This document shows, piece by piece, positions 1 through 23,473 of a stretch of DNA of 31,244 nucleotides. Both the position numbers and the translations under genes were made by a program. The stretch lies in the IMG/VR virus record IMGVR_UViG_2585428013_000006. One strand, 5' to 3'. Under the pieces are notes generated by a model. It saw only the letters and a list, made by a program, of their open reading frames with translations. It had not been told where the DNA came from and ran no database searches. This DNA is from a virus (taxonomy: Duplodnaviria > Heunggongvirae > Uroviricota > Caudoviricetes). The stretch's first letter is position 1. Every line of letters starts with the position of its first letter.

Positions 1-648
1 ATGGAAACAATCATCACCGTTATCGCTGCTGTTGCTGGGATCGCTTTTTGGGTTGGGCTAATCAATCCCAAATGGGTTTTTATGCCAAATCGAAAGCGTT
101 CATCTGCTATCTACTTCGGGGTGTGCCTCTTGGCAGCAATCATAGGTTCAATGGTTGCACCAGTCGCGCCGAAAGCTGTTGCTGATAATAAGCCTCAACC
201 AGCAGTGACAACCACAGATCAAACACAACCTGCGGCTAAATCCAAAGAGCAATTAACAACCACTATCGACTTTTCAGAAGCGACCAATCAACTTCCCCCG
301 GCTTTATCTAAGGCGCTCGGTAAGTTGAACCTCACAGTTAAGCCCGTCATTTACAACAAAGCTTTAGTGGTTGCATTCAATTTTGACAGCATAGAAGAAT
401 TACAGGCGACAAGCGCCGTCCAGTCCGTATGTCTCAGCTACTTCAATCATGGGGAATCTAACAGGGCATGGAAGGCTAGTTTATTCGATCATATTTATGT
501 GACTAACGACATTTTAACCAAAGGCTACGTTTTTCAAGGTGGCGAATCTTCGTGTGATATCTGGGGCAAGAAGGCTGGGGATAGTGGCGATCAATATTTA
601 AGTGAAAACCTTACACGATCAAGGTTTGTAGCCATAAATATGAAATGA
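1..648 (+). CDS. Hypothetical membrane protein with two N-terminal hydrophobic helices; cargo or flanking host gene
   Basis: Complete ORF with ATG at position 1; hydrophobic segments IITVIAAVAGIAFWVGLI and IYFGVCLLAAIIGSMVAPVAP; visibly more AT-rich than the phage core; followed by a hairpin terminator. No family recognised. Confidence 0.45.
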   Translation: METIITVIAAVAGIAFWVGLINPKWVFMPNRKRSSAIYFGVCLLAAIIGSMVAPVAPKAVADNKPQPAVTTTDQTQPAAKSKEQLTTTIDFSEATNQLPPALSKALGKLNLTVKPVIYNKALVVAFNFDSIEELQATSAVQSVCLSYFNHGESNRAWKASLFDHIYVTNDILTKGYVFQGGESSCDIWGKKAGDSGDQYLSENLTRSRFVAINMK

Positions 649-965: not shown

Positions 966-2084
966 TTAAGACGTTGAATCGTCACTCTCCGCTGTCCAGT
1001 CGTCGATTTTTACTTCCAGTTCCAGCGACGTGGTAAACCCTCCCCCGCCAATATCGTGAACGCACCGCGTTATCGTCCAGTTCCCACTGTCGATCGTGGA
1101 CTTAAAGCCACAGACGCTGGCGGGCTGTTCCGGGTACAAATCTGTTCGGCCACGCGCCAGGGTGATGCTGAACGTCGCCGCTCCACGCTGCAACTCCCGC
1201 CACTTAGCCGCAGCGGCACGCTTTGCCGCCTTTTCCGTCTTGAAGGTTTTACGGATAACAAAAACGTTACCTTCTGCCCCGGCCAGATAATCCCCCTCTT
1301 TTTTGCTGGATGCAGGCTCTTTCTTTTTGGCCTGGCTGGTTCGGCGCCTGCGGGTTGTTTTCTTGACGGTAGTGGATGGTTTCTTGCCAAAGTTGAGATC
1401 AAGCCAGTATGCAGTTACGCCCGTGTACGCGTCGCGGTCAGCTACGTTAAAGCTATGTTTATCACCGCTTGACCGGACTATCTCGATCACCGGCAGCGGC
1501 TTGCCGCTCTGCGTCACTCCCTTGCCCGGCGTGATAAACAGAAGCATACCGTTTTTAATGGTTGCCACCGCGCCCAGCATTTCGGCCATGCGCGTTAAGA
1601 AGCTGATATCTGATTCACTCGTCTGATCGGCGTGGTCTATCTCAATCTTCGCCAGTTCTTCGCTGACGCCCGCACGCAGATCGTAGCGACTGGCAATGCT
1701 GGCGACCACATCCCCCACGGTAATATCGTGCCAGCTATATTCCCTCTTCACGTTGAAGGTATCGCGGAAATCCGCGCTTCTGGCACTGATCGTTAGCTGG
1801 TCAGGCGGGCCAGCGTGTCCGATCTCATCAACCGTATAGACGCCCTTAAAAACCAACGGATCATTATCCCAGCCCAGCGCCACCGATATCTTTGCACCGC
1901 GTGGTGGTAATGCTACCTGCCCGTCTGCATCATCCAGAGTCAGATCCAGCGTGTCCGCTTCAAAGCCCCGGTTATCAGTCAGGGAAAGAGAGATCAGCCG
2001 GTTATCCAGCGCCGTAAGCTGATTACCTTCAATTTCAATACTGAACGCCGGACGCGGCGAATATCGGTTTTCTGTCGTGTCCAT
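966..2084 (-). CDS. D: Tail protein D (phage late control D family)
   Basis: 372 aa; recognisable gpD-family sequence; ATG at 2084 with GAAGGGG upstream. Confidence 0.85.
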   Translation of the reverse strand: MDTTENRYSPRPAFSIEIEGNQLTALDNRLISLSLTDNRGFEADTLDLTLDDADGQVALPPRGAKISVALGWDNDPLVFKGVYTVDEIGHAGPPDQLTISARSADFRDTFNVKREYSWHDITVGDVVASIASRYDLRAGVSEELAKIEIDHADQTSESDISFLTRMAEMLGAVATIKNGMLLFITPGKGVTQSGKPLPVIEIVRSSGDKHSFNVADRDAYTGVTAYWLDLNFGKKPSTTVKKTTRRRRTSQAKKKEPASSKKEGDYLAGAEGNVFVIRKTFKTEKAAKRAAAAKWRELQRGAATFSITLARGRTDLYPEQPASVCGFKSTIDSGNWTITRCVHDIGGGGFTTSLELEVKIDDWTAESDDSTS

Positions 2085-2151
2085 ATCAACCCCTTCATCA
2101 TGATGGGGTACATCGTCGCCACGCGCGCGCGCATGAACAACGCCCCGTCAT

Positions 2152-2169
2152 TGTTGCAGGTTGCTGACA
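2152..2169. promoter_or_regulatory. TGT-N12-ACA dyad, candidate Ogr-dependent late promoter activator site (PF-like) in the D/FI divergent region
   Basis: TGTTGCAGGTTGCTGACA; centre about 81 bp upstream of the FI ATG and 76 bp upstream of the D ATG; (CG)5 tract at 2122-2132. Confidence 0.6.
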
Positions 2170-2241
2170 ACCCTTATTCATCGCATCGGCCTGCCATTGC
2201 CGCAATGATATTCGCAGTCATTAAACTGGCGAGGCAAATAC

Positions 2242-3435
2242 ATGGCCACTAACTACCATCGCGGTGTAACCGTCACGGAAACCACCGACCTTAGCACGAT
2301 GATCACCGACATTGATTCGGCGGTGATCGGTGTTGTCTGCACCGCTGATGATGCGGACGAAACAGCGTTCCCGCTGGATACCCCTGTACTGATCACCCGC
2401 GTGGCTAACATGCTGGGCAAGGCAGGTAAAACCGGCACCCTGTTTACCACCCTGAAAGCGATTTCAGACCAGACCAGCCCGCAAACCATTGTGATCCGCG
2501 TTGCTGATGCTGCAAATATCGAACCGCCAGAAGGCGGCACCGCTCCAACACAGGATCAACTGGTTATTGGCGGCACCGATGCAAACGGACGCTTTACCGG
2601 CATGTACGCGCTGCTGTCTGCCGAAATGCGCGTAGGCGTGCGCCCACGTGTGCTGGCTGTTCCCGGTCTTGATACGGAAGCGGTGGCCGCACAACTCGGC
2701 GTCATTGCCGAAAAGCTGCGCGCGTTTGCTTACGTGGCAGCGAACGGCTGCAACACCATCGCCGAAGTGAAGGAATACCGCGAACAGTTCTCCCAGCGTG
2801 AAATGATGGTTATCTGGCCTAATTTCATCTGCTACGACATCAACGCCGGGGCGAATGCTACCGTGCCCGTGGGTGCCCATGCGGTTGGGATGCGCGCCAA
2901 AATCGACGCAACGCAGGGCTGGCATAAAACCATTTCCAACGTGCCCGTTAATAACGTGCTGGGGATGGATCGGGATATCTATTTCACGTTGCAGGGCACC
3001 GATACCGACGCCGACGAACTGAACGCAGCAGGCGTTACCACGCTGATCAAGCAGGACGGCTACCGCATCTGGGGATCGCGTACCTGCGACGCAGAAACGT
3101 ATATCTTCGAAAGCTATACCCGAACCGCGCAGATCGTTGCGGATACCGTCGCCGAAGCCCATTTCGCCTATGTTGATAAACCGCTTACCCCGTCGCTGGT
3201 TAAGGACATTGTGGACGGCATCAATAAGAAGCTGACCTCATACGTGACGGCTGGCAAGCTGCTGGGCGCCCGCTGCTGGTATGACCCGGAACCGAATACC
3301 TCGGAAACCCTGCGCAATGGTCAACTGACCATTAAGTACAACTACACCCCTGTTCCACCGCTGGAAAATCTCAGCCTGGTACAGGAGTTTACCGACGAAT
3401 ATTTCGCTACGTTTTCCAGCGCAGTGAATAACTAA
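2242..3435 (+). CDS. FI: Contractile tail sheath protein FI
   Basis: 397 aa; strong resemblance to P2 FI throughout (e.g. GVPGLDT, KLRAF, NFSQRE.MVIWP, GWHKT.SNV, YTPVPPLENL); ATG at 2242. Confidence 0.95.
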   Translation: MATNYHRGVTVTETTDLSTMITDIDSAVIGVVCTADDADETAFPLDTPVLITRVANMLGKAGKTGTLFTTLKAISDQTSPQTIVIRVADAANIEPPEGGTAPTQDQLVIGGTDANGRFTGMYALLSAEMRVGVRPRVLAVPGLDTEAVAAQLGVIAEKLRAFAYVAANGCNTIAEVKEYREQFSQREMMVIWPNFICYDINAGANATVPVGAHAVGMRAKIDATQGWHKTISNVPVNNVLGMDRDIYFTLQGTDTDADELNAAGVTTLIKQDGYRIWGSRTCDAETYIFESYTRTAQIVADTVAEAHFAYVDKPLTPSLVKDIVDGINKKLTSYVTAGKLLGARCWYDPEPNTSETLRNGQLTIKYNYTPVPPLENLSLVQEFTDEYFATFSSAVNN

Positions 3436-3447
3436 CCGGGGGCGCTT

Positions 3448-3963
3448 ATGGCACTGCCTAAGAAACTTAAATATTTCAATATGTTTTTTGACGGTGATAA
3501 CTACTTCGGCATGGTGCCGGAAATTACCCCCGCCAAACTCACCAAAAAAACCGAAGACTACCAGGCGGGCGGTATGCCGGGTTCGGTTGCGGTGGATCTG
3601 GGCTTCGACGCTGGCGCCCTGGATATGGATATCACGCTTGGCGGTCTGGATGCCGGATTGCTTAAAAAATGGGGCGTTACCACTGCTGACGGGATGCAAA
3701 CACGTTTTGCTGGCTCCTATCAGGACGATGCGACCGGCGACGCTGTACCGTGCGAAATCCAGACGCGTGGCCGCTTCACTGAACTGGATCCCGGTTCGGC
3801 AAAAGTCGGGGATGACACTTCGCATAAGTACACCCTGAAAAACACCTATTACAAGCTGACCATCAACGGCGAAGAGATTATCGAAGTTGATGTGCTCAAC
3901 ATGATCTACAAAGTTGCCGGTGTGGATGTGCTGGAAAAACACCGCGCTAACATCGGCTTATAA
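3448..3963 (+). CDS. FII: Tail tube protein FII
   Basis: 171 aa, immediately after FI; size and position match P2 FII; ATG 3448 with G-rich RBS. Confidence 0.85.
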   Translation: MALPKKLKYFNMFFDGDNYFGMVPEITPAKLTKKTEDYQAGGMPGSVAVDLGFDAGALDMDITLGGLDAGLLKKWGVTTADGMQTRFAGSYQDDATGDAVPCEIQTRGRFTELDPGSAKVGDDTSHKYTLKNTYYKLTINGEEIIEVDVLNMIYKVAGVDVLEKHRANIGL

Positions 3964-3977
3964 GGAAACCCGGCACC

Positions 3978-4313
3978 ATGAGCAAGACCAAAGAAAACAC
4001 CGTTATTCTTACCGCCCCTATTACGCGCGGTAAGACCAAAATCACCGAGGTGGCGATCACTTCCGTGCTTAAACAGGCTGGATCACTGCGTGGTTTAAAA
4101 GCCTATGACGTGTTGACGTCCAACTATGACGCGCTGGTTATTCTTCTGCCCCGCGTTACCGCTCCGGCATTAACTGCCGATGAGATTGCCAGAATGGATA
4201 CCTGGGATTTTTGCCAGCTAGCCAACGCGGTGGTTGATTTTTTGCAACCCTCTTCGGATCTGAACGAGACGGATACGGGCAACGAATCATCCGATGCCCC
4301 TGCGAACGCATAG
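3978..4313 (+). CDS. E: Tail assembly chaperone E
   Basis: 111-aa ORF between the tube and tape-measure genes; AAGGAA RBS; contains slippery heptamer TTTTTTG at 4238-4244. Confidence 0.7.
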   Translation: MSKTKENTVILTAPITRGKTKITEVAITSVLKQAGSLRGLKAYDVLTSNYDALVILLPRVTAPALTADEIARMDTWDFCQLANAVVDFLQPSSDLNETDTGNESSDAPANA

Positions 4314-4438
4314 AAGACCTGATGGCAGATATCGCCGTCATATTCCACTGGCGGCCGGTAGAGATGGACGCCATGACGGTACAGGAAATACTGTTATGGC
4401 GTGATCAGGCGGCTGCGCGCAGTGGTGGAGATCACTAA
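3978..4438 (+). CDS. E+E' fusion product made by programmed -1 ribosomal frameshift at 4238-4244
   Basis: The -1 frame after T_TTT_TTG stays open for 65 codons and stops at TAA 4436-4438, immediately before the tape-measure ATG at 4439; matches the P2 E/E' arrangement. Confidence 0.55.
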
Positions 4439-7372
4439 ATGGCAGACCGCAATTTAAATATCAGGGTGGCATTCAGCGCCCTGAATAATATGTCCCGCCC
4501 TGTCAACGCGGCGCGCCAGAGTGCCGCCGCGTTGGCATCTCAAATCAATCAGACCAAAACCAGCATTAAAGGGCTTGAGCGTCAGGCAACCAGCTTTGAC
4601 CGCCTCACCGCAGCCAATAAAAAAACCACCGAACAACTGGCCCAGGCGAAAGAACAGGCCCGGCAAATGGCGGCGGCTTATGGCCCGTTACGCCAGCGTA
4701 GCGCCGAACAGGTTGCCGCTCTCAATCAGCAACGTGCAGCCATTCGCCAGTTAACCCAGCAGCAGAAAGGCGAGCAGACGCAGCTTAACCAGTTGCGCGC
4801 CAGCTTCTACAGCGAAGGCATTGCGATCAGCAGTGCCAGCCGGGCGACGGAACAGATCAACCAGCGCACCGCGCAATACAATCGCCAGCTTGCCGAACAG
4901 CAGCGACGGCTTGACGCTGTTAACCAGGCGCAGGCCCGTTACAGCCGCGCCAAAGAAACCGGCGAAAAGATGATGAGCGGGGGAATGAAAACCGCCGCAG
5001 TAGGGGCGGCAACCCTCGCACCTGTCGCCGCTGCGGTGAAATCCTACAGCAGCCTTGAAGACGCGATGAAGGGCGTAGCCAAACAGGTAAACGGCTTGCG
5101 TGACGACAGCGGCAACCGCACCCCGCAATATGAAGAAATGCAGCGGGCGATCATGGATGCCAGCGAAAAGCTGCCAATGGCTAACGGTGCTGTTGACTAT
5201 GCCGCCCTGGTCGAAGGCGGCGCGCGTATGGGCGTTGCAAACAGCGATGATCCGTGGGAAAAACAAAAAGCCGATCTGCTGGCTTTCGCCAGCATGGCGG
5301 CAAAAGCTTCGGTAGCCTTTGAACTGCCCGCCGATCAGCTTTCTGAAAGCCTGGGTAAAATTGCCGGGCTGTATAAAATCCCTACCCAGAATATTGAACA
5401 GTTGGGCGACGCCATAAACTACCTGGACGATAACGCGAAGTCGAAAGGCTCCGATATTATCGACGTGCTCCAGCGCGTTGGCGGGCTTGCCAGCCAACTG
5501 GATTACAAGCAAGCCGCCGCGCTGGGTTCCACCTTTCTGACGCTTGGATCACCTGCCGAAGTTGCCGCCAGCGCAACCAATGCAATGGTGCGCGAACTAT
5601 CGATTGCCACAGTACAAAGCGATAAATTTTTGGGTGCGCTGGATGAAATCGGCGTCAATGCTGAAAAAGTCCAGAAAAGCATGTCAGTGGACGCGATGGG
5701 CACGATTATTTCAGTGCTCGAAGCCTCTAAAAAACTTGCACCAGATAAGCAGGTAGCCAACCTTACCCAGATTTTCGGTAAAGAGTTCGGGGATGATGCG
5801 CAGAAACTTGCCAACAACCTGCCAGAACTGCGCCGCCAGATAGAACTGACGCAGGGCGCAGCCGCTAAAGGTTCCATGAACCGGGAATCTGATATTAATA
5901 AAGCTTCCCTTTCCGCTCAGTGGCAATTGACCAAAACCGGCGCGGTTAACGCATTCAGTTCAGCAGGGGAAACGCTCCGCGAACCGCTGATGGATATCAT
6001 GCTTACCGTCAGTAAGGTGATTGGCAGCGTCCGCCGCTGGGTTGAGGCAAACCCTGCGCTGGTTGGCTCAATCATGAAAGTCACCGCAGCCATAGGCGCG
6101 TTGCTGGTTGTCGTGGGTGGTCTGATGCTGTCTATCGGCGCAGTGCTGGGCCCGATGGCGCTTGTTCGCCTCAGCTTCACCACGCTGGCCGGGGAAGGAG
6201 GAATAGCACGGCTGACTGGCGGAGTAATGCGCCTGGGTGGTGCGTTCCAGTGGCTTGCTGGCTCGCCTATGCAGGCATTATTAAGCGCCGGTCGCATGGT
6301 ATTCGGCCCGCTTATCACGCTACTGGCTGGCATTTCTGCGCCCGTATGGGGGCTGATTGCGCTCTTTGCGGCAGCAGCAGTGGCCGTCATTAAATTCTGG
6401 GAACCAATACAGGCATTTTTCACTGGTTTCTTTAACGGTATCATGACGGGCTTGCAACCTGTATTTGATGCTTTCAACGCTGTTTTCGCTCCATTAGCCC
6501 CAATCTTTGACGCGATAGGCTCCGCTATTAGCGGCGTTTGGGATTGGTTTACAAAATTGCTTGAACCGATCAAATTTTCCAGCGATGCGTTAGAAACTTG
6601 CACTACTGTTGGCGAAACATTTGGGAGGGTTCTGGGTACTGCAATAAGCGGTTTGCTTTGGCCGCTACAAAAATTGATGGAGGGTGTCGGCTGGGTACTG
6701 GAGAAACTTGATCTAATTCCTGCTGGGCTTGATGCAGCAAACGCCAAAGCAAATAGCCTTAAAAAAGATCCCGTTGTCTGGGAGTGGGATCCGCAACAAA
6801 AGAAAATGGTTAAAAAGGATTGGAACTGGTCGCCAGATAAACCAAACCAGCCTAAACCGCCAAAACCGCCAATAACACCTAAGCCAGTTGGTATCCCAGA
6901 CCTTATGGGATCGCCGAACTTAACCCCGAAGATGAGCAAGAGTCTGGATAAAATCGCAGACAACACGGGAAAAATGGCAGCAAAAGACGGGCCCGGCGAA
7001 ATCGTCTTCAAGAATAAGCAGCCTTATATCCCGATCCGGGGCGGATATTCGGAACCGCTTAAGCAGGCGCAGCGCCAGCTACCATCCCTTACGGATTGGG
7101 TGACGCAGCAGGCCGGATCTCTGATCGCTTCCGTTACGCCGTGGCAGGTTGAGAAGCCCGCCGCACGGGTGCCCGTTTCGGCGTCGCCGTCTGCGGCCTC
7201 CGTCGCTGCGCTGATGCCCGCGCCGGGTGGCGATGTATATAACCTTAGCTTCGACTTTAGCGGCCAGAAACTGGATGAAGAAACCATTATCAGGCGCGTG
7301 CGCGAAGAACTTGCGTTAGCGAAGCAGCAGGCCGACCGGCGCAAGCGCTCCCAACTGATCGATCACGTCTAA
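4439..7372 (+). CDS. T: Tail tape measure protein T
   Basis: 977 aa; coiled-coil Q/A-rich N-terminus, hydrophobic Gly/Ala-rich central region; located after E/E'. Confidence 0.9.
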   Translation: MADRNLNIRVAFSALNNMSRPVNAARQSAAALASQINQTKTSIKGLERQATSFDRLTAANKKTTEQLAQAKEQARQMAAAYGPLRQRSAEQVAALNQQRAAIRQLTQQQKGEQTQLNQLRASFYSEGIAISSASRATEQINQRTAQYNRQLAEQQRRLDAVNQAQARYSRAKETGEKMMSGGMKTAAVGAATLAPVAAAVKSYSSLEDAMKGVAKQVNGLRDDSGNRTPQYEEMQRAIMDASEKLPMANGAVDYAALVEGGARMGVANSDDPWEKQKADLLAFASMAAKASVAFELPADQLSESLGKIAGLYKIPTQNIEQLGDAINYLDDNAKSKGSDIIDVLQRVGGLASQLDYKQAAALGSTFLTLGSPAEVAASATNAMVRELSIATVQSDKFLGALDEIGVNAEKVQKSMSVDAMGTIISVLEASKKLAPDKQVANLTQIFGKEFGDDAQKLANNLPELRRQIELTQGAAAKGSMNRESDINKASLSAQWQLTKTGAVNAFSSAGETLREPLMDIMLTVSKVIGSVRRWVEANPALVGSIMKVTAAIGALLVVVGGLMLSIGAVLGPMALVRLSFTTLAGEGGIARLTGGVMRLGGAFQWLAGSPMQALLSAGRMVFGPLITLLAGISAPVWGLIALFAAAAVAVIKFWEPIQAFFTGFFNGIMTGLQPVFDAFNAVFAPLAPIFDAIGSAISGVWDWFTKLLEPIKFSSDALETCTTVGETFGRVLGTAISGLLWPLQKLMEGVGWVLEKLDLIPAGLDAANAKANSLKKDPVVWEWDPQQKKMVKKDWNWSPDKPNQPKPPKPPITPKPVGIPDLMGSPNLTPKMSKSLDKIADNTGKMAAKDGPGEIVFKNKQPYIPIRGGYSEPLKQAQRQLPSLTDWVTQQAGSLIASVTPWQVEKPAARVPVSASPSAASVAALMPAPGGDVYNLSFDFSGQKLDEETIIRRVREELALAKQQADRRKRSQLIDHV

Positions 7373-7382
7373 GGGCAATATC

Positions 7383-7832
7383 ATGATGATGATTCTGGGG
7401 ATGTTCCCCTTTTCACTGCAAACCACGCCTTACCAGAGTGCGAATAAAACCAACTCCTGGCGGCACGTCAAAAACGATCGCGTGGGGAAATCCCCGCGCT
7501 ATCAGTTCATCGGCGCAGATGAAGAACCTTTCGTACTTAGCGGCACGCTGTACCCCGAAATAAGTGGCGGTGATGTGTCGCTTGTCATGCTGGAAACTAT
7601 GGCCTTTTCCGGGCGACCGTGGCCCCTGATAGAAGGTACGGGCAGGATCTACGGCATGTATGTGATTGAGCAGATCACGCAAAACCGGACGGAGTTTTTT
7701 AAGGACGGGAAGGCAAAGAAAATTGATTTTACGCTGAACCTGAAACGGGTAAGCGAGGACATACGGGAAAAGCTGGCCGAAACTACCACCGACGATCTCT
7801 TCTCTCTGGTGAAAACCAACCTTTCGATATAA
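7383..7832 (+). CDS. U: Tail protein U
   Basis: 149 aa immediately after T; gpU-like size and position. Confidence 0.8.
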   Translation: MMMILGMFPFSLQTTPYQSANKTNSWRHVKNDRVGKSPRYQFIGADEEPFVLSGTLYPEISGGDVSLVMLETMAFSGRPWPLIEGTGRIYGMYVIEQITQNRTEFFKDGKAKKIDFTLNLKRVSEDIREKLAETTTDDLFSLVKTNLSI

Positions 7833-7836
7833 GAAA

Positions 7837-7855
7837 AGCGGGCCTTTGCCCGCTT
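7837..7855. terminator. Hairpin terminator in the convergent U/G intergenic region
   Basis: AGCGGGC-CTTTG-GCCCGCT; T-run on the minus-strand side (TTTTCTTAT), C/T-rich on the plus side. Confidence 0.5.
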
Positions 7856-7881
7856 CCCCTCCTTGCGGCACTGCCATAACT

Positions 7882-7943
7882 GACCGTGCTGCAGCACCGT
7901 TAAAAATGACTGTACTCGATACGCACGGCCAGCACGGTTAGAA
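7882..7943. repeat. 62-bp intergenic repeat, copy 1; hairpin-capable; about 82 percent identical to 13913-13974
   Basis: Hand alignment: CCGTGCTG[C/G]AGCAC...AAAAATGAC...ATACGCACGGCCAGCAC[G/A]GTTA shared by both copies; terminal arms CCGTGCTG and CAGCACGG are reverse complements. Confidence 0.7.
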
Positions 7944-7969
7944 CCGGCCATGCGTGCCGGAATGAAAAC

Positions 7970-8566
7970 TTATTCCGGCTTATCCGGCCAGATGATATCC
8001 GGCGCTTTTGACGTGTCCACCGCCTGCACGGCTTTGATGTAGTTCATCCAGGCGATCAGGCTGGTTTTATCTTCATCGCTGATAATGCCTAACTGTAGCT
8101 CCGTCTGCCAGAGACTGATCGTTGCCTGCGCCTCACTCAATAACGCTGTTTTCTGTTGCTCCGCCGCTTCCACGTCCGCCGCGTGCTGCGCTTCGGTATC
8201 CGTCACCCACTCGCTACCGTTCCACGTATCATATGGCGTAGCAGGTGCCAGGGTGGTGGTATTTTCCGGGTAATCGCCAGGCAAAGAAACGATCAAGGAT
8301 TCGCCTGTTTCAGTACTGTATACCGTTTCACCACGGTGATCGGCGACGTATTCCCAGGCGGTCAAATCGGCTGTCCGGCAAATGGCCGAACCGGCTTTAG
8401 TTTTACCTGGTGCGTCAGTACAAGAGTTTGCGGGAAGACCGACGCCTACGGCCAGATATTCAACGGATGAAGAAAGGTATTCGCGCGTCTCACCCTCGAA
8501 GTTAAACACGGTAATATCACCGGCCACAGTAGCAATAAATTCACTGTTTAATTTTGCCTTTGCCAT
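7970..8566 (-). CDS. G: Tail fiber assembly protein (G-like)
   Basis: 198 aa directly downstream of the tail fiber gene; ATG 8566 overlaps the H stop. Confidence 0.75.
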   Translation of the reverse strand: MAKAKLNSEFIATVAGDITVFNFEGETREYLSSSVEYLAVGVGLPANSCTDAPGKTKAGSAICRTADLTAWEYVADHRGETVYSTETGESLIVSLPGDYPENTTTLAPATPYDTWNGSEWVTDTEAQHAADVEAAEQQKTALLSEAQATISLWQTELQLGIISDEDKTSLIAWMNYIKAVQAVDTSKAPDIIWPDKPE

Positions 8567-12087: not shown

Positions 12088-12225
12088 AGTGCTGACTGTT
12101 TCCCGTGGTGCCGGTTACGCTGTCCGGCGTCGCTTCCACCCGGTAGCAGGCTTTACGACCGTTTCGGCTTTTGGGTTATGCAGTCAGTATCAGGAGTCGC
12201 GCGCGCGCAAACAACGCGGCGCCAT

Positions 12226-12243
12226 TGTGGCGGGTTGGTGACA
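12226..12243. promoter_or_regulatory. TGT-N12-ACA dyad, candidate late promoter (PV-like) between S and V
   Basis: TGTGGCGGGTTGGTGACA; CGCGCGCGCGC tract at 12198-12208 lies between the dyad and V. Confidence 0.55.
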
Positions 12244-12244
12244 A

Positions 12245-12889: not shown

Positions 12890-13344
12890 GTTTCGCCGCT
12901 GACCTCATCAACAAATACCAGTGACCACGCGCCAATTTCTGGCCCCGGTGCAGGGTCAGCACGGTGACGGGTGACGATCTCGCCATCTTCACGGGTGACG
13001 ATCACCGCTTCATCAGCCTGAATCTGGATCAGCACGTCCATCGTGCTGTTACTCAGAATATCGGCTTCAAATGTTATGCCGTTCTGCTGCCTGTCCGGGT
13101 TAAACAACAGATCAGGCTGATATAAGCGCGCCCATGCCAGCACCGGCACGCTGATAGTATCCAGAGATTCAGGAAAATCCATCACCAGCACTTCCAGCGT
13201 ATAGCGATACTCAAACGCAGCAGCACGCTGGCCGGTGCTGACCATACGGCCTTTACGCAGGTAAACCGCCAGATTATCGGGATTCTCGCGCAGCCAGGGC
13301 ACATGCTGGCTTATCATCTGGCGCAGCAAATCGGGTTTAAGCAT
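12850..13344 (-). CDS. R: Tail completion protein R
   Basis: 164 aa; position after the lysis genes. Confidence 0.75.
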   Translation of the reverse strand: MLKPDLLRQMISQHVPWLRENPDNLAVYLRKGRMVSTGQRAAAFEYRYTLEVLVMDFPESLDTISVPVLAWARLYQPDLLFNPDRQQNGITFEADILSNSTMDVLIQIQADEAVIVTREDGEIVTRHRADPAPGPEIGAWSLVFVDEVSGETWQDNKPIPSSSS

Positions 13345-13877
13345 TACTTCTCCCTCCCGGACTTAACCGCATCATACGCAGCCTCACAGGCTAATCCTCT
13401 GGCTCTTGCTTCATCAGCATCTTTTGCCAGTTGCCCCGCTCGATCGTCAGCGCGGCGGAACAGGTCGGCGAGCAGTACGGCGCCGCTGGTTTCTGCCTCG
13501 CTTCTGCCGGAAGTTCCGGCACCGCAGGCGCGTTCACGGTCTGCCAGTTGCCTGGCGAGTTTGTCGGCCCTGTCGTGCAGCCCACGAGAAGCAGCACGGG
13601 CACGATCGGCATCAGCCTGCACGCCAGCAAGCTGCTGACTGGCTTGTTTTCTGATCGCATCAATTTCACCTTGTCGGCGTTGTTCTTCTGTCCTGGCCTC
13701 TGCCTGCCTTTTCGCCAGCGCGGTGGCGTCGCGTGCATCCCGCTGTGCCCACTCTCCACGCCAGTGCTTATCGGCATCACCGTAACCGGCGCTGTAACGC
13801 CAGTGGCTAAAACCCCATACAGCAGCAGCGGCCAGCACAAAACAAACGATCACTTTCCAGCGTGACAACAGCCCCAT
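13344..13877 (-). CDS. lysB: LysB, Rz-like inner-membrane spanin
   Basis: 177 aa; N-terminal transmembrane helix (VIVCFVLAAAAVWGF) then charged, Arg/Ala/Gln-rich coiled-coil region. Confidence 0.7.
   Translation of the reverse strand: MGLLSRWKVIVCFVLAAAAVWGFSHWRYSAGYGDADKHWRGEWAQRDARDATALAKRQAEARTEEQRRQGEIDAIRKQASQQLAGVQADADRARAASRGLHDRADKLARQLADRERACGAGTSGRSEAETSGAVLLADLFRRADDRAGQLAKDADEARARGLACEAAYDAVKSGREK
13391..13660 (-). CDS. lysC: LysC, Rz1-like outer-membrane lipoprotein spanin embedded in lysB in another frame
   Basis: Lipobox LLVGC after a short hydrophobic leader; Pro-rich mature part; alternative start at ATG 13612. Confidence 0.5.
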   Translation of the reverse strand: MRSENKPVSSLLACRLMPIVPVLLLVGCTTGPTNSPGNWQTVNAPAVPELPAEARQKPAAPYCSPTCSAALTIERGNWQKMLMKQEPED

Positions 13878-13912
13878 TTCAAAACCTCTCGCCAGCTCGC
13901 ACCGTCAATACA

Positions 13913-13974
13913 GGCCGTGCTGGAGCACTGTCAAAAATGACCGCGCTCAATACGCACGGCCAGCACAGTTAAAA
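13913..13974. repeat. 62-bp intergenic repeat, copy 2 (between K and lysB)
   Basis: Same element as 7882-7943, same orientation; 51 of 62 positions identical by hand alignment. Confidence 0.7.
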
Positions 13975-13978
13975 ATGA

Positions 13979-14413
13979 TCAGGCCAGAAATAACGTGCGC
14001 TCGGCTTCCCGACGCTTAACCAGCCCCGGCAACACCTTCCCGCCTGCTTTATTCCATTTCGGAAACTCAGCCGCAGCCCCGGCGTAATCCCCAGCATTCA
14101 GCTTTTTCAGCAGTGTGGAACCTTCCAGCGCCTTTACGCCCAGGTTGTAGGCAAAATCAACCAGCGCATCGAACTGATTTTGATTGATGGTGACTTTAAC
14201 CAGCCCCGTAACGCCTTTTTCATACTGCACCAGACCGCTACGCAACAGGCTATCGGCAGTTTCCTGCGTAATGGTCATACCCTTGCCAACCGGCACACCG
14301 TTGACGGGTTGAGTCCATCCATAACCGATCGTCCAGACGCCTACAGAATCCTGATAAGCGGCCAGCCTGCACCCTTCAAAGCCTTTCAGCATGTTGATGC
14401 CGTTATTGCTCAT
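13979..14413 (-). CDS. K: Endolysin (phage lysozyme, T4-lysozyme-like)
   Basis: Lysozyme-like motifs (GFEG.RL.AYQD, T.GYGWT); ATG at 14413 with GGTGGAG RBS (the track start 14419 is GTG). Confidence 0.85.
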   Translation of the reverse strand: MSNNGINMLKGFEGCRLAAYQDSVGVWTIGYGWTQPVNGVPVGKGMTITQETADSLLRSGLVQYEKGVTGLVKVTINQNQFDALVDFAYNLGVKALEGSTLLKKLNAGDYAGAAAEFPKWNKAGGKVLPGLVKRREAERTLFLA

Positions 14414-14738
14414 CTCCACCTTTCATCCCTCCGATTCGGTTTTCGATAAACCCGGTAACTTTGTTGCGGACTTTATCCGCGCCCATAAATCCGATTGAGG
14501 CGCCCACGAATGTTACTGCGTTGGACGGAAGCCCCAGATATTCCAGCGAACCGGCCACAGCAAGCGTGACAATCCCACATACCAGCGATCCGGTGGCGGT
14601 TTTAAGCAAAGACTGCCCATCGTAAAGGCTCATTAGCGCCGAAATACTCAGCGCCGCACCAGCCGCAAACAGTGTCGGCAGATAAGTAGCGATCCATTTC
14701 ATTGTTTGTTCGAGTAATCCCGGTGGTGTGTCGTGCAT
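14403..14738 (-). CDS. Y: Holin
   Basis: About 111 aa with hydrophobic helices; ATG 14738 preceded by GGGGGAGG; the track ORF extends further 5' into gene X in another frame. Confidence 0.65.
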   Translation of the reverse strand: MHDTPPGLLEQTMKWIATYLPTLFAAGAALSISALMSLYDGQSLLKTATGSLVCGIVTLAVAGSLEYLGLPSNAVTFVGASIGFMGADKVRNKVTGFIENRIGGMKGGDEQ

Positions 14739-21649: not shown

Positions 21650-21677
21650 AAGGGCTTTGTTAGCCCTTAATTTTTTA
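21650..21677. terminator. Bidirectional hairpin terminator ending the accessory operon
   Basis: AAGGGCT-TTGTT-AGCCCTT flanked by A-run and T-run. Confidence 0.65.
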
Positions 21678-22313
21678 CCTTCCCCACTCCCGATCAGGAA
21701 GTCGATCTTTGAAGGCAAGGTAATCGTAAAACTCACGAGTATGGGAAAAGATACATTCGCACATTGCAGCGCCAGCGTTTGAAAGAGCCAATTTCAACAT
21801 GCCGTCAGGTTTAGGATTGCTCACCAAATTTTCATAAACTTGAGCCTGATCTGTACCGTGGACACATAACAAAAGTGACGACTCAAAGGTAACAACTGCA
21901 TCCAGTAAACGCTGATGAATCACGGAAAGGGCCGGTTGGTTTGCAACAATTGCAGTCAAACAGCGGCGATCACCCGTCATGAAAATGGCTTCTGGGTTCT
22001 CTATGCACGAGGCAAGCAATAGCTGTTCGCCTACATCAATTCCGGGCACACTCCCCAAAAGCTCAATAAGCTGTGAGTCCTGAACTTCCGGGATATCCTG
22101 TACAGATTCAATGAAGGCTCCCACCTGCTCGTAAACAACCTGGCTACCACACTTCCTGATTGCTTTATCAGGATTTTTCGGCAGAAGCTGAAAACGAGCA
22201 GCAGGGTTAATGAAGATCTGTTCGGGGGGTTGATTAAAAACCACTGGCAGTTGTGATAACAGATTGCACTGGGCCAGCTTCAAAATGACATCATTGTCAG
22301 AAAGAACAATCAC
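21675..22313 (-). CDS. Hypothetical protein, possible PIN-like nuclease fold; second gene of the accessory pair
   Basis: 212 aa; GTG start after tandem TAA TAA; N-terminal IVLSDNDVI and later IFMTGDRR resemble PIN acidic motifs (weak, by eye); AT-richer than the phage core. Confidence 0.45.
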   Translation of the reverse strand: MIVLSDNDVILKLAQCNLLSQLPVVFNQPPEQIFINPAARFQLLPKNPDKAIRKCGSQVVYEQVGAFIESVQDIPEVQDSQLIELLGSVPGIDVGEQLLLASCIENPEAIFMTGDRRCLTAIVANQPALSVIHQRLLDAVVTFESSLLLCVHGTDQAQVYENLVSNPKPDGMLKLALSNAGAAMCECIFSHTREFYDYLAFKDRLPDREWGR

Positions 22314-22316
22314 TTA

Positions 22317-23315
22317 TTATTCCCCGATTAGATTTTCTAAAACCTTAAGATCATCTTCGTGGATATTTTCTAAATCCATCCCGCTTTTCATCATGGCCCT
22401 CACAAAATCCTGATCTGAGTCTTCACCAGCACAGAGTGCTTTAACAGCGTTAACAGCAGCACCCCAGCAGTTCTGCGCGAAACCATAATTTAAAGCGATG
22501 TGAGTCGGGTCAATGTGATTATCACTTCCAAACTTTTGAGCCGCGCGAGCCAAGCCAGGCCCATTCAACCTGCCAGCGGTAGGAACGATACGTAAAGACT
22601 TCTGCCCCGAAATGACCTGGAAAGCGAATTCGTTGGCTTCTTTCTCTACGTTGTCCGTCGAAGCATTCTCAATTTTTGCATCAATATGGCACTGCCCGTT
22701 TTCTGCGTTCAGATGCCCTCTGGCGATATGGCCTAACTCATGCGCGAGATCAAACAGCATATAGCCATATTTCTGAGGCTGAGTAAGAACAATCACCGGG
22801 CGCCCGTGACTCATTAGTGCCAGCCCGGCCATTTTTTTGGCAGCTTGAGGGAAGCATTTTAGATAAACAACAGGAATGCCAATCGAATGACAGTATGTTA
22901 CCAGGCTATCTAACGATACCCATGATTCCTTAGTAAGAATCTGGGTTCTTATCGCCAAAGGATCAAGCACTGCACTGGAATCGTAAGGGACTTTGAAATT
23001 AGACGCGACAATACCGGCCGCAGTATAGGCAACAGCAGTAGCGATATCTAAATCGTTCTCGGCTACATTTTGGCGATGTTTATATTTATGGTTTCCACCA
23101 AAATTAAAGCATACCCCTTCGCTACCATCTTTCAGGCTATCCGGGAGAATGCTAAACATACGCGCAAGGTGCAGGCACGCATACTGGCGCCCTGATGGGG
23201 TGTCAGCAAGCTTCTCATCCCACCAGTCAGGCAACAACCTGCGGATGTAAGAGAGATTAAACCCGGCCCGGCCGAATTTAGAATATATCTGACTCATCTG
23301 ATTATGGTTCGTCAT
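22317..23315 (-). CDS. ImmA/IrrE-family (M78-like) zinc metallopeptidase domain protein with unknown N-terminal region
   Basis: 332 aa; HELGH followed by EKEANEFA, the arrangement typical of ImmA/IrrE peptidases; AGGAGG SD; occupies the P2 old/tin position. Confidence 0.7.
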   Translation of the reverse strand: MTNHNQMSQIYSKFGRAGFNLSYIRRLLPDWWDEKLADTPSGRQYACLHLARMFSILPDSLKDGSEGVCFNFGGNHKYKHRQNVAENDLDIATAVAYTAAGIVASNFKVPYDSSAVLDPLAIRTQILTKESWVSLDSLVTYCHSIGIPVVYLKCFPQAAKKMAGLALMSHGRPVIVLTQPQKYGYMLFDLAHELGHIARGHLNAENGQCHIDAKIENASTDNVEKEANEFAFQVISGQKSLRIVPTAGRLNGPGLARAAQKFGSDNHIDPTHIALNYGFAQNCWGAAVNAVKALCAGEDSDQDFVRAMMKSGMDLENIHEDDLKVLENLIGE

Positions 23316-23473
23316 AAGAGCCTCCTAACTGCGTGTGTAAGCGAAATGCCATTTGTTATTAGCTTAGTTATGACACAAAAGCGCGCACACTATAAGCAGA
23401 AAACGGCGAAAGTCATAACTATTTCGATTGTGTGGAAAATGGGTAATTGCTTCTTAGAGCGGCTTATATCGGC

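Follow-up and report, generated by a model that had tools for sequence, protein, structure and literature searches.

Short quasi-palindromic elements occupy module junctions in a clade of P2-like phages of Enterobacterales

The DNA analysed here, referred to throughout as the window, is a 31,244-nt sequence (IMG/VR virus record IMGVR_UViG_2585428013_000006) and is a SEN4/SEN5-like P2-type prophage. It contains two intergenic copies of a short repeat, the first between the convergent gpU and tail-fibre assembly genes and the second between the endolysin and spanin genes (Table 1). Both copies had been described in a first-pass annotation as lying just 3′ of a minus-strand gene, and these genes are confirmed as the tail-fibre assembly gene (G) and the endolysin gene (K). 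An intrinsic terminator lies just past copy 1 and lacks a U-tail on the plus strand. Elsewhere in the window, an origin-type sequence, GCCCCTCGGAGTTCTGTCAA, is present on the minus strand at 23916–23935, and the Ogr box (TGT-N12-ACA) occurs at 2150–2167 and 12226–12243.

Table 1. Coordinates of genes, element copies and internal features at the two junctions of the window
Feature	Position	Strand	Basis	Details
gpU (tail protein)	7383–7832	+	PF06995, E=5e-39	Adjoins copy 1 on left
Strong intrinsic terminator for minus-strand transcripts	7830–7855	−	Sequence reading and folds	GCGGGC-AAAG-GCCCGC, then UUUUCUU
Element copy 1 at type A site (gpU/tail-fibre assembly)	7868–7965		nhmmer E=1e-22	
Unit U1	7869–7888		One mismatch to CACnGTyA-N4-TGACnGTG	Quasi-palindromic 20-mer, CACTGCCATAACTGACCGTG
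Block B1	7889–7920			CTGCAG-CACCGTTAAAAATGACTGTA-CTCGAT; includes unit HP1 (7895–7914) and A5/T5 run (7903–7907)
Block B2 and unit HP2	7927–7952			B2, GGCCAGCAC; HP2 (7933–7952), CACGGTTAGAACCGGCCATG
Block B3 and hairpin	7955–7979			B3 (TGCCGGAAT, 7955–7963) is the left arm; hairpin GCCGGAAT/ATTCCGGC
Tail-fibre assembly protein, P2 G equivalent	7970–8566	−	PF02413	Adjoins copy 1 on right
Rz-like spanin (DUF2514)	13344–13877	−		Transcriptionally downstream of copy 2
Spanin start codon and Shine-Dalgarno sequence	13875–13891	−		Start codon 13877–13875; GAGAGG 13891–13886; inside segment inserted versus empty-site relatives
Element copy 2 at type B site (endolysin/spanin)	13899–13981		nhmmer E=3e-16	
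Copy 2 unit U1	13900–13919			
Copy 2 unit HP1	13926–13945			
Copy 2 third unit	13964–13983			
Terminator-like site within copy 2, sense strand	13928–13962	−	Consensus match only	UGGCCGUGCGUAUUGAGCGCGGUCA, then UUUUUGACAG
Endolysin, P2 K equivalent	13979–14419	−	PF00959	Transcriptionally upstream of copy 2

Copy 1 (7882–7943) and copy 2 (13913–13974) were identical at 52 of 62 positions (84%) and lay in the same orientation; roughly 82 percent was first reported. The repeat extends leftward to 76 nt (7868–7943 versus 13899–13974, 61/76 = 80%) and is the longest direct repeat of the window. Its similarity held under alignment statistics; with copy 1 as query, the best match elsewhere in the window scored 50.1 bits, compared with a mean of 22.0 ± 2.1 bits and a maximum of 30.2 bits for the best matches in composition-preserving shuffles (n = 200). 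No third copy was found in the window, with nhmmer recovering two and the gap at 23316–23473 near gene A showing no remnant. The 62-bp repeat is therefore real, but it falls short of the full conserved element at site 1, which spans about 7868–7965 when its limits are set where similarity to otherwise diverged relatives begins and ends. The reverse-complementary arms that had been described exist in copy 1 (CCGTGCTG, 7884–7891; CAGCACGG, 7930–7937), one base to the left of the span first implied, but only 7/8 bases pair in copy 2 because its right arm reads CAGCACAG (13961). The minimum free energy fold of the plus strand used the extended arms CUGACCGUGCUG/CAGCACGGUUAG.

Arms are present, but the actual anatomy consists of arrayed quasi-palindromic units of ~20 bp, shared by a wider phage family. 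Its members are non-coding elements of ~80–110 bp, each with two to five degenerate units (CACyGTyA-N4-TGACrGTG) and the conserved blocks B1–B3. Searching the window for CACnGTyA-N4-TGACnGTG returned 16 matches against 3.1 expected, 12 of them inside the two elements. Unit spacing is irregular (25–46 bp), and arrays downstream of gene A reach five units. Block B1 is the most conserved portion of the family, an invariance partly imposed by the search pattern used. The right arm of the B3 hairpin consists of the final codons and stop (7970–7972) of the tail-fibre assembly gene, and the endolysin stop codon (13979–13981) interrupts the third unit of copy 2.

Carriage of this element family is confined to one clade of P2-like phages infecting Enterobacterales. 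Scanning viral sequences with the core pattern yielded 65 loci. When the gene neighbours of every core-pattern occurrence were classified, in these loci as well as in the window and the phage records, nearly all were gpU/tfa or gpA/methylase. Matches in a further scan of 185,579 species-representative genomes were considered confirmed when similarity reached beyond the search pattern; such extended matches were found only in Enterobacterales P2-like prophages, and about 35 matches in other taxa shared nothing beyond the 20-nt pattern. Copy number was one to three per phage genome or species genome. The possibility that the element is a host repeat found genome-wide did not hold, given that confirmed matches lay in P2-like prophages and that, of the complete E. 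coli genomes (n = 5,426), only 38 carried the element, at one to six places each. Neither among the species representatives nor among the E. coli genomes was a REP/BIME-like dispersal across the host chromosome, outside prophages, detected. Four or more ICTV genera (among them Senquatrovirus, Novemvirus, Irrigatiovirus and Reginaelenavirus) have the element at the same junctions. No account of the repeat was found in the literature on SEN4/SEN5, P2 hotspots, P2-virus diversity or prophage transcriptomes, and this family of non-coding, hairpin-prone junction elements is apparently undescribed.

Five site types were distinguished, every one intergenic and at a module border: tail/tail fibre, lysin/spanin, gene A/methylase or cargo, S/V and the region after int. 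Among relatives, the element is 81–94% identical, compared with 50–53% for the 3′ 300 nt of gpU, and in four loci (L011, L016, L038 and L040) the other flank too is just 56–61% identical. The right neighbour of copy-1-type elements varies between tfa, other tail-fibre genes and a Hin-type invertase, whilst copy-2-type elements next to the same spanin adjoin unrelated endolysins (PF00959 in the window, Peptidase_M15_4 in L125). The element thus has the form of an inter-module linker, a conserved non-coding patch with each flank differing between relatives. Its orientation is not fixed at the gpU/tfa junction, where both orientations occur, and a single contig (2773857894_000005) holds opposed copies (L018, plus; L068, minus). 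Unit-to-unit deletions (L012 and L163) and in-place unit inversions (L164 and L158) were also found, and L158 contains a perfect 48-bp palindrome. At the site of copy 2, endolysin and spanin overlap at ATGA in relatives with an empty site (L009, L013 and L015), and copy 2 is a ~98-nt insertion into this gene overlap, which supports duplication of a small repeat; comparison of filled and empty sites revealed no target-site duplication. Some other relatives, such as L162, likewise lack the element at the same junction. Copies group according to site and not genome, with ~20% difference between sites.

Our leading reading, which we hold tentatively and with rather less than even confidence, is that the family represents a recombinogenic junction or linker element working mainly as DNA, with incidental attenuator or 3′-hairpin activity. 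As a short near-identical patch precisely where functional modules meet, the element would permit host-mediated homologous recombination to cross over between otherwise diverged phages, and each such crossover would swap the flanking modules. Its palindromic units would further promote duplication, unit-to-unit deletion and in-place inversion of the element. Recombination at the element would then cause both the mosaicism and the conservation. Against this role, a purely recombinogenic element would be expected to pay a price for direct copies that enclose essential genes at a spacing of 6 kb; high conservation could equally result from purifying selection on a binding site, and the diverged gpU group may reflect one old event.

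The distribution of divergence also bears on a neutral explanation, in which the element is a decaying, functionless scar, left by earlier rearrangement or turnover of cargo and persisting in intergenic gaps. Copy 2 is 92.8% identical to its SEN5 counterpart, compared with 95.8% for the surrounding 1.2 kb, so close relatives diverge at the element about as fast as in its surroundings, and both the deletion variants and the element-free junctions (L162; empty sites L009, L013 and L015) agree with decay. However, neutral DNA should not hold 81–94% identity beside saturated flanks, variation is limited to a few columns, and the same junctions are occupied across the four or more genera named above. 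We consider such a scar improbable.

Folding of both strands, a check proposed in the first-pass annotation, placed the elements below shuffles, with z-scores for the element alone of −2.7 (plus strand) and −1.5 (minus strand) for copy 1 and of −4.1 and −4.5, respectively, for copy 2; whole intergenic regions gave a z of −5 against shuffles. On the sense (minus) strand, both window copies have a hairpin followed by T5. A terminator scan flagged that of copy 2, whose stem has nine pairs, six of them G-C, whereas the copy 1 stem is mismatched and went unflagged, folding at −13.8 kcal/mol before UUUUU. Many gpU/tfa copies likewise have a hairpin of −9 to −20 kcal/mol just ahead of the U-run, and each copy begins at, or a few tens of nucleotides from, the upstream stop codon. 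These features, together with the low folding energies, would suit an element acting primarily at RNA 3′ ends, as an intrinsic terminator or attenuator and mRNA-stabilizing hairpin cluster that, in the manner of REP elements or intercistronic hairpins, sets relative expression at operon ends and within the late operon. Other sites fit poorly: gene A/methylase copies have a weak hairpin (about −5 kcal/mol) with no terminator flagged, the sense RNA at S/V and int sites has A5 instead of U5, the orientation being reversed, and type C and type D sites lack a G+C-rich stem followed by a U-run. In addition, copy 1 already has the strong canonical terminator (7830–7855) after it, and terminators normally conserve structure rather than 85–94% of sequence when the proteins of the phages compared share only ~50% identity. 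The terminator or stabilizer first envisaged is hence supported only in part, by the sense-strand hairpins of the window and not by the sites where these are weak, absent or reversed.

Comparison among homologues provided no indication of a maintained RNA fold. The RNAalifold consensus of 48 sequences reached only −1.2 kcal/mol, and no compensatory pairs were detected in five candidate helices or in the terminal-arm hairpin. Helices S4 and S5 paired in 72–81% of cells with no covarying pairs, and the terminal-arm hairpin first described paired in 83.3% of cells compared with 83.7% in shuffles, again with 0 compensatory pairs, and so gains no evolutionary backing. The asymmetry between G-U and A-C (131 versus 91 cells) points to neither strand. 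Because no tested helix has compensatory change, conservation acts at the level of sequence, not RNA structure, and we regard a primary role at RNA 3′ ends as unlikely. In the recombinogenic reading, a transcribed element would nonetheless fold into hairpins, which in the window orientation would give minus-strand (sense) RNA with a hairpin and U5 that may affect transcription. Given this hairpin and U5, copy 1 probably contributes to terminating the tail-fibre operon and protecting its 3′ end, whereas the probable effect of copy 2 is to damp transcription that reads through from the lysis genes into spanin, R and S. Even this component is inconsistent across the family, being weak at gene A/methylase and in the wrong orientation at S/V and int.

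Expression of the element as an independent transcript or peptide was also considered. Rfam 15 covariance models gave 0 matches across the whole window on both strands (E ≤ 1). Sigma-70 promoters were flagged neither in the two window copies nor at sites of type C and type D, and hand-found −35/−10 candidates were not kept between site types. With neither a conserved promoter nor a conserved terminator beside the element, and with nothing from Rfam, the independent small RNA suggested earlier is unlikely. The plus strand could alternatively encode an 11-codon micro-ORF (MTVLDT[H/Y]GQHG*) or a small RNA. Its frame, from ATG at 7906 to TAG at 7941, is kept in 24/30 gpU/tfa copies, where TAG, TAA or TGA serves as the stop; column entropy falls from codon position 3 to 1 to 2 (5.4, 3.0 and 1.8), and direct reading of copy 2 gives a parallel ORF, MTALNTHGQHS*. 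Yet two of the variable third positions are Ns of the search pattern, there is no Shine-Dalgarno sequence, SEN5-type copies lack the start codon (ACG), and the frame is lost at gene A/methylase and in the inverted gpU/tfa group, where the DNA is conserved. The copy 2 plus strand is moreover antisense to the late operon, and the missing promoter and terminator and the Rfam result also count against this explanation, which we consider very improbable. The N-terminus of gpD (MDTTENRY...) is unrelated to the micro-ORF, and a scar of the gene D start was rejected.

Sequence-level conservation without covariation would also be expected if the 20-bp units were an array of operator sites for a dimeric DNA-binding protein, of phage or host origin, with a regulatory or architectural role. 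Each unit is a palindromic 20-mer whose symmetric positions vary freely (A2 columns 13 and 26), and a function of this kind would not depend on orientation, both of which occur; in-place unit inversion is tolerated, and arrays downstream of gene A contain up to five units. No candidate protein was identified, however, unit spacing varies over the 25–46 bp given above, the immunity region of the window contains no units, and there is no nearby sigma-70 promoter to regulate. The LexA (SOS) box has the consensus CTGT-N8-ACAG, which some units fit, for example that of L014 (CTGTCAGAAATGACAG). Few units of relatives do so, and those of the window violate it (CTGC...ACCG, CCGT...ACTG and CTGT...ACCG), leading us to reject this identity. 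Integrase arm-type sites were similarly discarded, the SEN5 attP repeats (GTGTAGaCAAnATGTAGAC, TGTAGAC repeats) being unlike the unit, and the Ogr box is absent from the element. To our knowledge, there is no convincing fit by eye to IHF, Fis, CRP, the PhoB box, matS, marbox, lambda operators, hix or Chi, a comparison we do not count as evidence. On the pattern of the units, a protein-binding array is conceivable but, like the RNA 3′-end role, unlikely.

A different partner would be gpA, the HUH endonuclease, to which the element could be tied as a mobile or pseudo-origin element in the manner of REP and RAYT. The B1 minus strand (ATCGAG-n-AC-n-GTCA...) would then mimic the nick region of gene A, and gpA would nick or copy the element. 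The origin-type sequence lies within gene A, and its core (a hairpin and CyTyGGAGTTCTGTCAATAACTsTACG), which contains a unit-like half-site, CTGTCAA, is kept across gpA proteins that are ~38% identical. This core and the B1 minus strand share TCG(G)AGT.C.GTCA (10/14 ungapped), the largest arrays lie directly downstream of gene A, and the copy 2 insertion is clean, with no obvious target duplication. Set against this, the resemblance is near chance given the many alignments tried (p~0.1 by our own estimate) and includes a one-base spacing difference at the presumed nick site, orientation relative to the nicked strand is not uniform, and there is no sign of recent transposition, as copies differ by ~20% between sites and cluster by site. 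We therefore judge this tie to gpA quite improbable. A strand-specific single-strand initiation signal for rolling-circle replication was rejected as a general role, since one group has the gpU/tfa copy in inverted orientation and a single contig has it facing the opposite way to its gene A copy. More speculatively, and with little probability, the element might be a cis-acting partner of gpA, either a pseudo-origin or a REP-like hairpin site, that gpA moves, copies or inverts, the gene A arrays then corresponding to REP clusters beside RAYT genes; in a variant, the units would be operators of a DNA-binding protein organizing the junctions.

Among the closest known systems are the REP/BIME sequences of enterobacteria, with which the family shares short imperfect palindromes in clustered arrays with variable linkers, a strictly intergenic position often just after stop codons, occurrence in either orientation, hairpins in RNA and DNA and unit-level rearrangement. 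REP/BIME number in the hundreds per host chromosome, whereas the junction family is phage-restricted, with its one to three copies fixed in position at module junctions and no RAYT-type transposase, the only nearby HUH protein being the replication protein gpA. The unit sequence is also unrelated to what we take to be the REP consensus. MITEs such as ERIC/IRU and Correia resemble the family in small size, inverted terminal similarity, insertion relative to an empty site and dispersed copies; unlike these, its copies do not all share clear terminal inverted repeats, and it clusters by site and has no cognate transposase, with no transposase or related autonomous element seen in the annotated relatives. 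A MITE was rejected given the left arm missing from type C and type D copies and the lack of a target-site duplication. Repeated intercistronic phage hairpins are exemplified by the RNase III sites of T7, and the window copies resemble these and Rho-independent terminators in their sense-strand hairpin and U-run and in being homologous hairpins between genes of one phage; here, however, the U-run is internal rather than terminal, the stems lack compensatory change, and at other sites they are weak or inverted. Invertase crossover sites (hix/gix/cix) are 26-bp sites with two 12-bp half-sites and a 2-bp core, and an inverted pair flanks the invertible segment. The window copies instead form a direct repeat with 6 kb and essential genes in between, the A-run of the unit is central and not in half-sites, and only occasionally does an invertase gene lie next to the element; this identity was likewise set aside. 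A CRISPR-repeat mimic (RNA anti-CRISPR) would resemble a host CRISPR repeat over nearly its full length and have a promoter and terminator of its own. One unit at type C sites shares CACTGCCG and GGCnG with the type I-F CRISPR repeat, a likeness not seen in the units of the window, and the flanks yielded no promoter. Among integrase arm-type sites, the 186-type consensus tgccGCCActt (PMC3448106) resembles some units only superficially.

Inter-module linker or boundary sequences of temperate phages are a further close known system. The idea of modular evolution in temperate phages reportedly goes back to Susskind and Botstein, and boundary sequences between modules have been described in lambdoid phages. 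Like these, the junction family is a short conserved non-coding stretch between exchangeable modules, with partners that change at its edges; it differs in that one family serves several junctions per genome, is built internally of repeats and palindromes and occurs in both orientations. P2-like phages, for their part, have been regarded as comparatively homogeneous (PMC3448106).

The genomes of P2-like phages contain hotspots where cargo, anti-phage defence genes included, turns over quickly, and these phages also swap tail-fibre (host-range) and lysis modules. According to Rousset et al. (PMC9122126), the mechanism behind hotspot exchange is unknown. A conserved non-coding element at module borders is a testable candidate for the homology anchor that enables this exchange. 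In this rearranged clade, the gpU/tail fibre site is the counterpart of the P2 G/FI hotspot, and the element is also found at the gene A/cargo and lysin/spanin borders. As an annotation marker, it defines a Peduoviridae clade with an inverted FI-U tail block and flags module boundaries. If the element is protein-bound or gpA-dependent, it would add a new cis-acting layer to a classical model phage group and, should the gpA reading be true, P2-like phages would possess a built-in system to reshuffle their modules and hotspot cargo.

The stretch is a P2-like prophage that shares about 96% identity with Salmonella phages SEN4 and SEN5 (Peduoviridae, Senquatrovirus). Its gene order is P2-like except for the tail block FI-FII-E-T-U. 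Relative to the P2 order, this block is inverted in place, between the tail-fibre genes and gpD (window 966-7832). Due to this inversion gpU converges on the tail-fibre assembly gene, and copy 1 of the element occupies the resulting 137-nt convergent gap, whilst copy 2 lies between the endolysin and Rz-like spanin genes. The first-pass annotation described these copies as a 62-bp hairpin-capable repeat, and overall this observation was confirmed with slightly corrected coordinates. The copies agree at 52 of 62 positions and, when extended, at 61 of 76, forming the longest direct repeat in the window. The best match of copy 1 elsewhere in the window scored 50.1 bits, compared to a mean of 22.0 +/- 2.1 bits (maximum 30.2) across 200 shuffles. 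Inverted arms are present in copy 1 (CCGTGCTG at 7884, CAGCACGG at 7930), the right arm of copy 2 reads CAGCACAG, and each strand folds better than shuffles.

Coordinates of the features discussed (window positions unless a relative is named)
Feature	Position	Strand	Remark
gpU	7383-7832	+	left neighbour of copy 1
Element, copy 1	7868-7965		units start at 7869, 7895 (HP1), 7933
Tail-fibre assembly gene	7970-8566	-	right neighbour of copy 1
Rz-like spanin	13344-13877	-	neighbour of copy 2
Element, copy 2	13899-13981		units start at 13900, 13926, 13964
Endolysin	13979-14419	-	neighbour of copy 2
62-bp repeat	7882-7943; 13913-13974		first-pass extent
Extended repeat	7868-7943; 13899-13974		76 positions
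Canonical terminator	7830-7855		U-tail for minus-strand transcripts only
Hairpin, gpU/tail-fibre assembly gap	7956-7979		involves B3
MTVLDTHGQHG*	7906-7941	+	11-codon ORF
MTALNTHGQHS*	13937-13972	+	11-codon ORF
47-nt direct repeat	2124-2170; 12198-12244		81% identical
Ogr-type box	2150-2167		between divergent gpD (-) and FI (+)
Ogr-type box	12226-12243		between gpS and gpV
Gene A / portal gap	21675-23315	-	
Gene A	23474-25828		
Origin nick sequence	23916-23935	-	inside gene A
Invertase gene, L206 (E. coli EcPF16)	3570-4151		
attP-region repeats, SEN5 (L004)	22818-22836; 23014-23032		
Kosakonia direct repeats (L102 / L029, NZ_FMBC01000048.1)	about 1-330		contig end

BLAST against phage records located the element at three places in SEN4/SEN5 and at a single site in each of Enterobacter phage phiT5282H (Novemvirus), Salmonella phages SI7, SW5 and SW3 (Irrigatiovirus) and Klebsiella phage 3LV2017 and its relatives (Reginaelenavirus). 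A conserved-core scan of IMG/VR returned 65 loci, mostly on contigs of 30-36 kb. When one genome from each of 185,579 species was searched with a looser 20-nt pattern, 53 loci matched; around 35 of them had no further similarity and equal the chance expectation for such a pattern. Loci with similarity beyond the pattern had P2-like neighbours in every case and, except for one from a record labelled as a Bacillota MAG (L106), were all from Enterobacterales (Citrobacter, Kluyvera, Enterobacter, Kosakonia, Salmonella, Erwinia, Izhakiella, Mixta and Dryocola). Given these exclusively P2-like contexts, and the presence of the element in only 38 of 5,426 complete E. coli genomes (1-6 places each), it is not a common host repeat; the element is real and phage-specific.

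When 48 non-redundant copies were aligned (A2), three blocks proved conserved: B1 (CTGCAG-CACnGTTAAAAATGACnGTn-CTCGAT), B2 (ATGGCCArCAC) and B3 (TGCCGGAA). They lie within an array of degenerate quasi-palindromic units of 20 bp (CACyGTyA-N4-TGACrGTG), at a spacing of 25-46 bp. The terminal arms of the proposed hairpin are no more than parts of the first unit, the CTGCAG-centred palindrome and B2. The invariance of B1 in pattern-derived loci is partly imposed by the search pattern, and B1 varies slightly in pattern-independent copies (for example AAAAACGAC, AAAAGTGAC and CTCAAT). Array variants included unit-to-next-unit deletions (L012, L163), in-place inversion of a unit (L164) and, in L158, a perfect 48-bp palindrome formed where one unit had become the exact complement of the adjacent one. 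In some SI7-like phages (L005, L045), a well-formed unit (CACTGTCAGAAATGGC) occurs inside gene A itself, in coding sequence roughly 45 nt downstream from the origin core; L010, in which the corresponding stretch differs, lacks it.

Classification of neighbouring genes by blastx against SEN5 proteins distinguished five site types: gpU / tail-fibre assembly or tail fibre (type A, including copy 1), endolysin / spanin (type B, including copy 2 and confined to the SEN4 lineage), gene A / Dam-like methylase (type C, up to five units), gpS / gpV upstream of the Ogr box (type D; L044, L098) and downstream of int (type E; L080, L088, L106, L114). Type A and type C copies can be opposed within one contig (L018 + versus L068 -). 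Across 80 gpU loci retrieved by protein, independently of the search pattern, the gpU-junction element was confined to convergent gpU/tail-fibre assembly loci with gpU at least ~78% identical to that of the window. It was present in + orientation where gpU was 95-100% identical (one locus ends before the site), present in nearly all loci at about 78-94%, mostly inverted (two end before the site), and absent at 71% or less; exceptions in the middle group were four near-identical loci in + orientation (L164-L166, L168) and one lacking the element (L162). In three relatives (L009, L013, L015), which have homologous genes for endolysin and spanin but no copy 2, the two genes overlap at ATGA; about 98 nt separate them in the window, including the Shine-Dalgarno sequence of the spanin, and on this comparison copy 2 is an insertion.

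Between the window and relatives with diverged gpU, the 88-nt element span was 81-94% identical, compared to 50-53% for the last 300 nt of gpU. In four relatives (L011, L016, L038, L040) the second flank was also only 56-61% identical, whilst L031 matched at 97% on the gpU side and 56% on the tail-fibre side, and L009 showed the reverse. The right-hand neighbour varied between different tail-fibre assembly genes, other tail-fibre genes and a Hin-type invertase (PF00239 + PF02796), and type B copies beside the same spanin adjoined unrelated endolysins (PF00959 in the window, Peptidase_M15_4 in L125). Among close relatives the element and its surroundings change at about the same rate (identity to SEN5 is 92.8% for copy 2 and 95.8% over the surrounding 1.2 kb). 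This pattern fits recurrent horizontal exchange at the element no less well than strong purifying selection. Our leading, still tentative, reading is that of a junction or linker element working as DNA, a shared homology patch at module borders across which host recombination would swap modules, with palindromic units allowing the element to duplicate, delete and invert. In such working it resembles the linker or boundary sequences put forward in models of modular phage evolution. That it is instead a neutral scar appears improbable.

In some E. coli prophages of the clade, for example L206, a Hin/Gin-type serine invertase gene directly adjoins the element at the gpU junction, its 3' end overlapping B3 by ~26 nt. 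This implies an adjacent invertible tail-fibre segment. The four type E loci share a nearly identical region of about 500 bp (int, terminator, element and an AT-rich region with GGGTTAC repeats) across Kluyvera, Ca. Erwinia dacicola, Izhakiella and the Bacillota-labelled MAG. The MAG locus may reflect bin contamination. The shared region suggests a widely distributed integrative element.

The first-pass hairpin gained no support as a selected RNA fold: across 30 type A copies (A3) it paired in 83.3% of cells, compared to 83.7% in shuffles, with no compensatory pairs. Four other candidate helices likewise gained no support from the homologue alignment. In A2, the RNAalifold consensus comprised only two 3-4-bp stems (-1.2 kcal/mol), symmetric variable positions of the unit HP1 showed no covariation (32 of 48 mismatched), and G-U versus A-C counts favoured neither strand. 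With no covariation and pairing no better than in shuffles, what is conserved in these alignments is sequence and palindromic composition, not a selected fold. An array of binding sites for a DNA-binding protein is an unlikely alternative.

No sigma-70 promoter was flagged within or beside any copy examined. On the minus (sense) strand of copy 2 a terminator-like site was flagged (9-bp stem, then UUUUUGAC), and the RNA directly before the same U5 folds at -9 to -20 kcal/mol in copy 1 and in many relatives of type A. In type C copies the fold there is worth only about -5 kcal/mol, with no terminator flagged, and at types D and E the sense RNA has A5 in place of U5. A part in termination or attenuation is thus plausible for the pair in the window, yet it cannot be the function that the whole family has in common. 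That the element is primarily an RNA 3'-end element is unlikely, on a par with the binding-site array. Beyond copy 1, in the direction of the tail-fibre transcript, lies a strong canonical terminator, and in a further hairpin of this gap B3 pairs with the final codons of the tail-fibre assembly gene, its stop codon included. We infer that the hairpin and U5 of copy 1 probably contribute to termination and to protecting the 3' end behind the tail-fibre operon, and that those of copy 2 probably attenuate read-through into spanin, R and S.

Parallel 11-codon ORFs occur on the + strand of both copies. A functional micro-ORF or small RNA is very improbable, the least probable of the readings weighed: MTVLDT(H/Y)GQHG* varies in a codon-like pattern, its stop being TAG, TAA or TGA in relatives, but it has no RBS, its start is lost in SEN5 and it is not retained at other site types. 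The ORFs are probably a by-product of unit structure. A gpA-related pseudo-origin or REP-like element, marginally less probable than a neutral scar, draws on the fact that B1 modestly resembles the conserved core of the origin in gene A, a likeness close to chance level given the number of alignments tried.

The element shares palindromic units, intergenic position and occurrence in either orientation with REP/BIME clusters, but its restriction to phages and its low copy number mean that it is not a member of the host REP families. Nor does it qualify as a MITE in the usual sense, with no shared terminal inverted repeats and no target duplication, or as a canonical terminator family, as covariation is absent and orientation inconsistent. 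It belongs to no Rfam family, and no description was found in the SEN4/SEN5, P2 hotspot and P2-virus diversity papers; in kind, it is an interspersed palindromic or junction repeat.

Several further features were observed. Each copy of a 47-nt direct repeat holds a TGT-N12-ACA dyad, the Ogr-type late-promoter box; lying between divergent genes, the gpD/FI box may serve both directions. Additional shared sequence (CGCGCGCGC...AACAACGC) occurs on the same side of both boxes, though the driven genes differ in strand. Gene A contains a replication-origin nick sequence of the P2 type (GCCCCTCGGAGTTCTGTCAA), with a hairpin (GGCGGCAACGCCGCC) before it. The origin core (GGAGTTCTGTCAATAACT) is identical in SI7-like phages, with gpA only ~38% identical, and their preceding hairpin differs in sequence (GTCGCCAACCGGCGAC), a compensatory-looking change. 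The gene A / portal gap, counterpart of the P2 cargo hotspot, encodes a 332-aa protein with an M78/IrrE-like peptidase domain and weak PADLOC matches (PD-Lambda-2_B, capP, RmrA) and a 212-aa protein with no match in Pfam or PADLOC, both candidates for cargo with a defence or regulatory role. Neither the Dam-like methylase nor the gene A-proximal element copy of SEN5 is present in the window. In the SEN5 attP region, direct repeats (GTGTAGaCAAnATGTAGAC) either side of a hairpin-rich core resemble P2-type integrase arm sites. In Kosakonia oryziphila, a run of direct repeats (GTTCACG...CCAGAAT) next to a type C element recalls the TGTTCACC iterons at the replication origin of satellite P4 and may point to a satellite or different replicon.

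The mechanism of module exchange in P2-like phages is still open (PMC9122126). The element marks the borders at which these phages exchange host-range, lysis and cargo modules.
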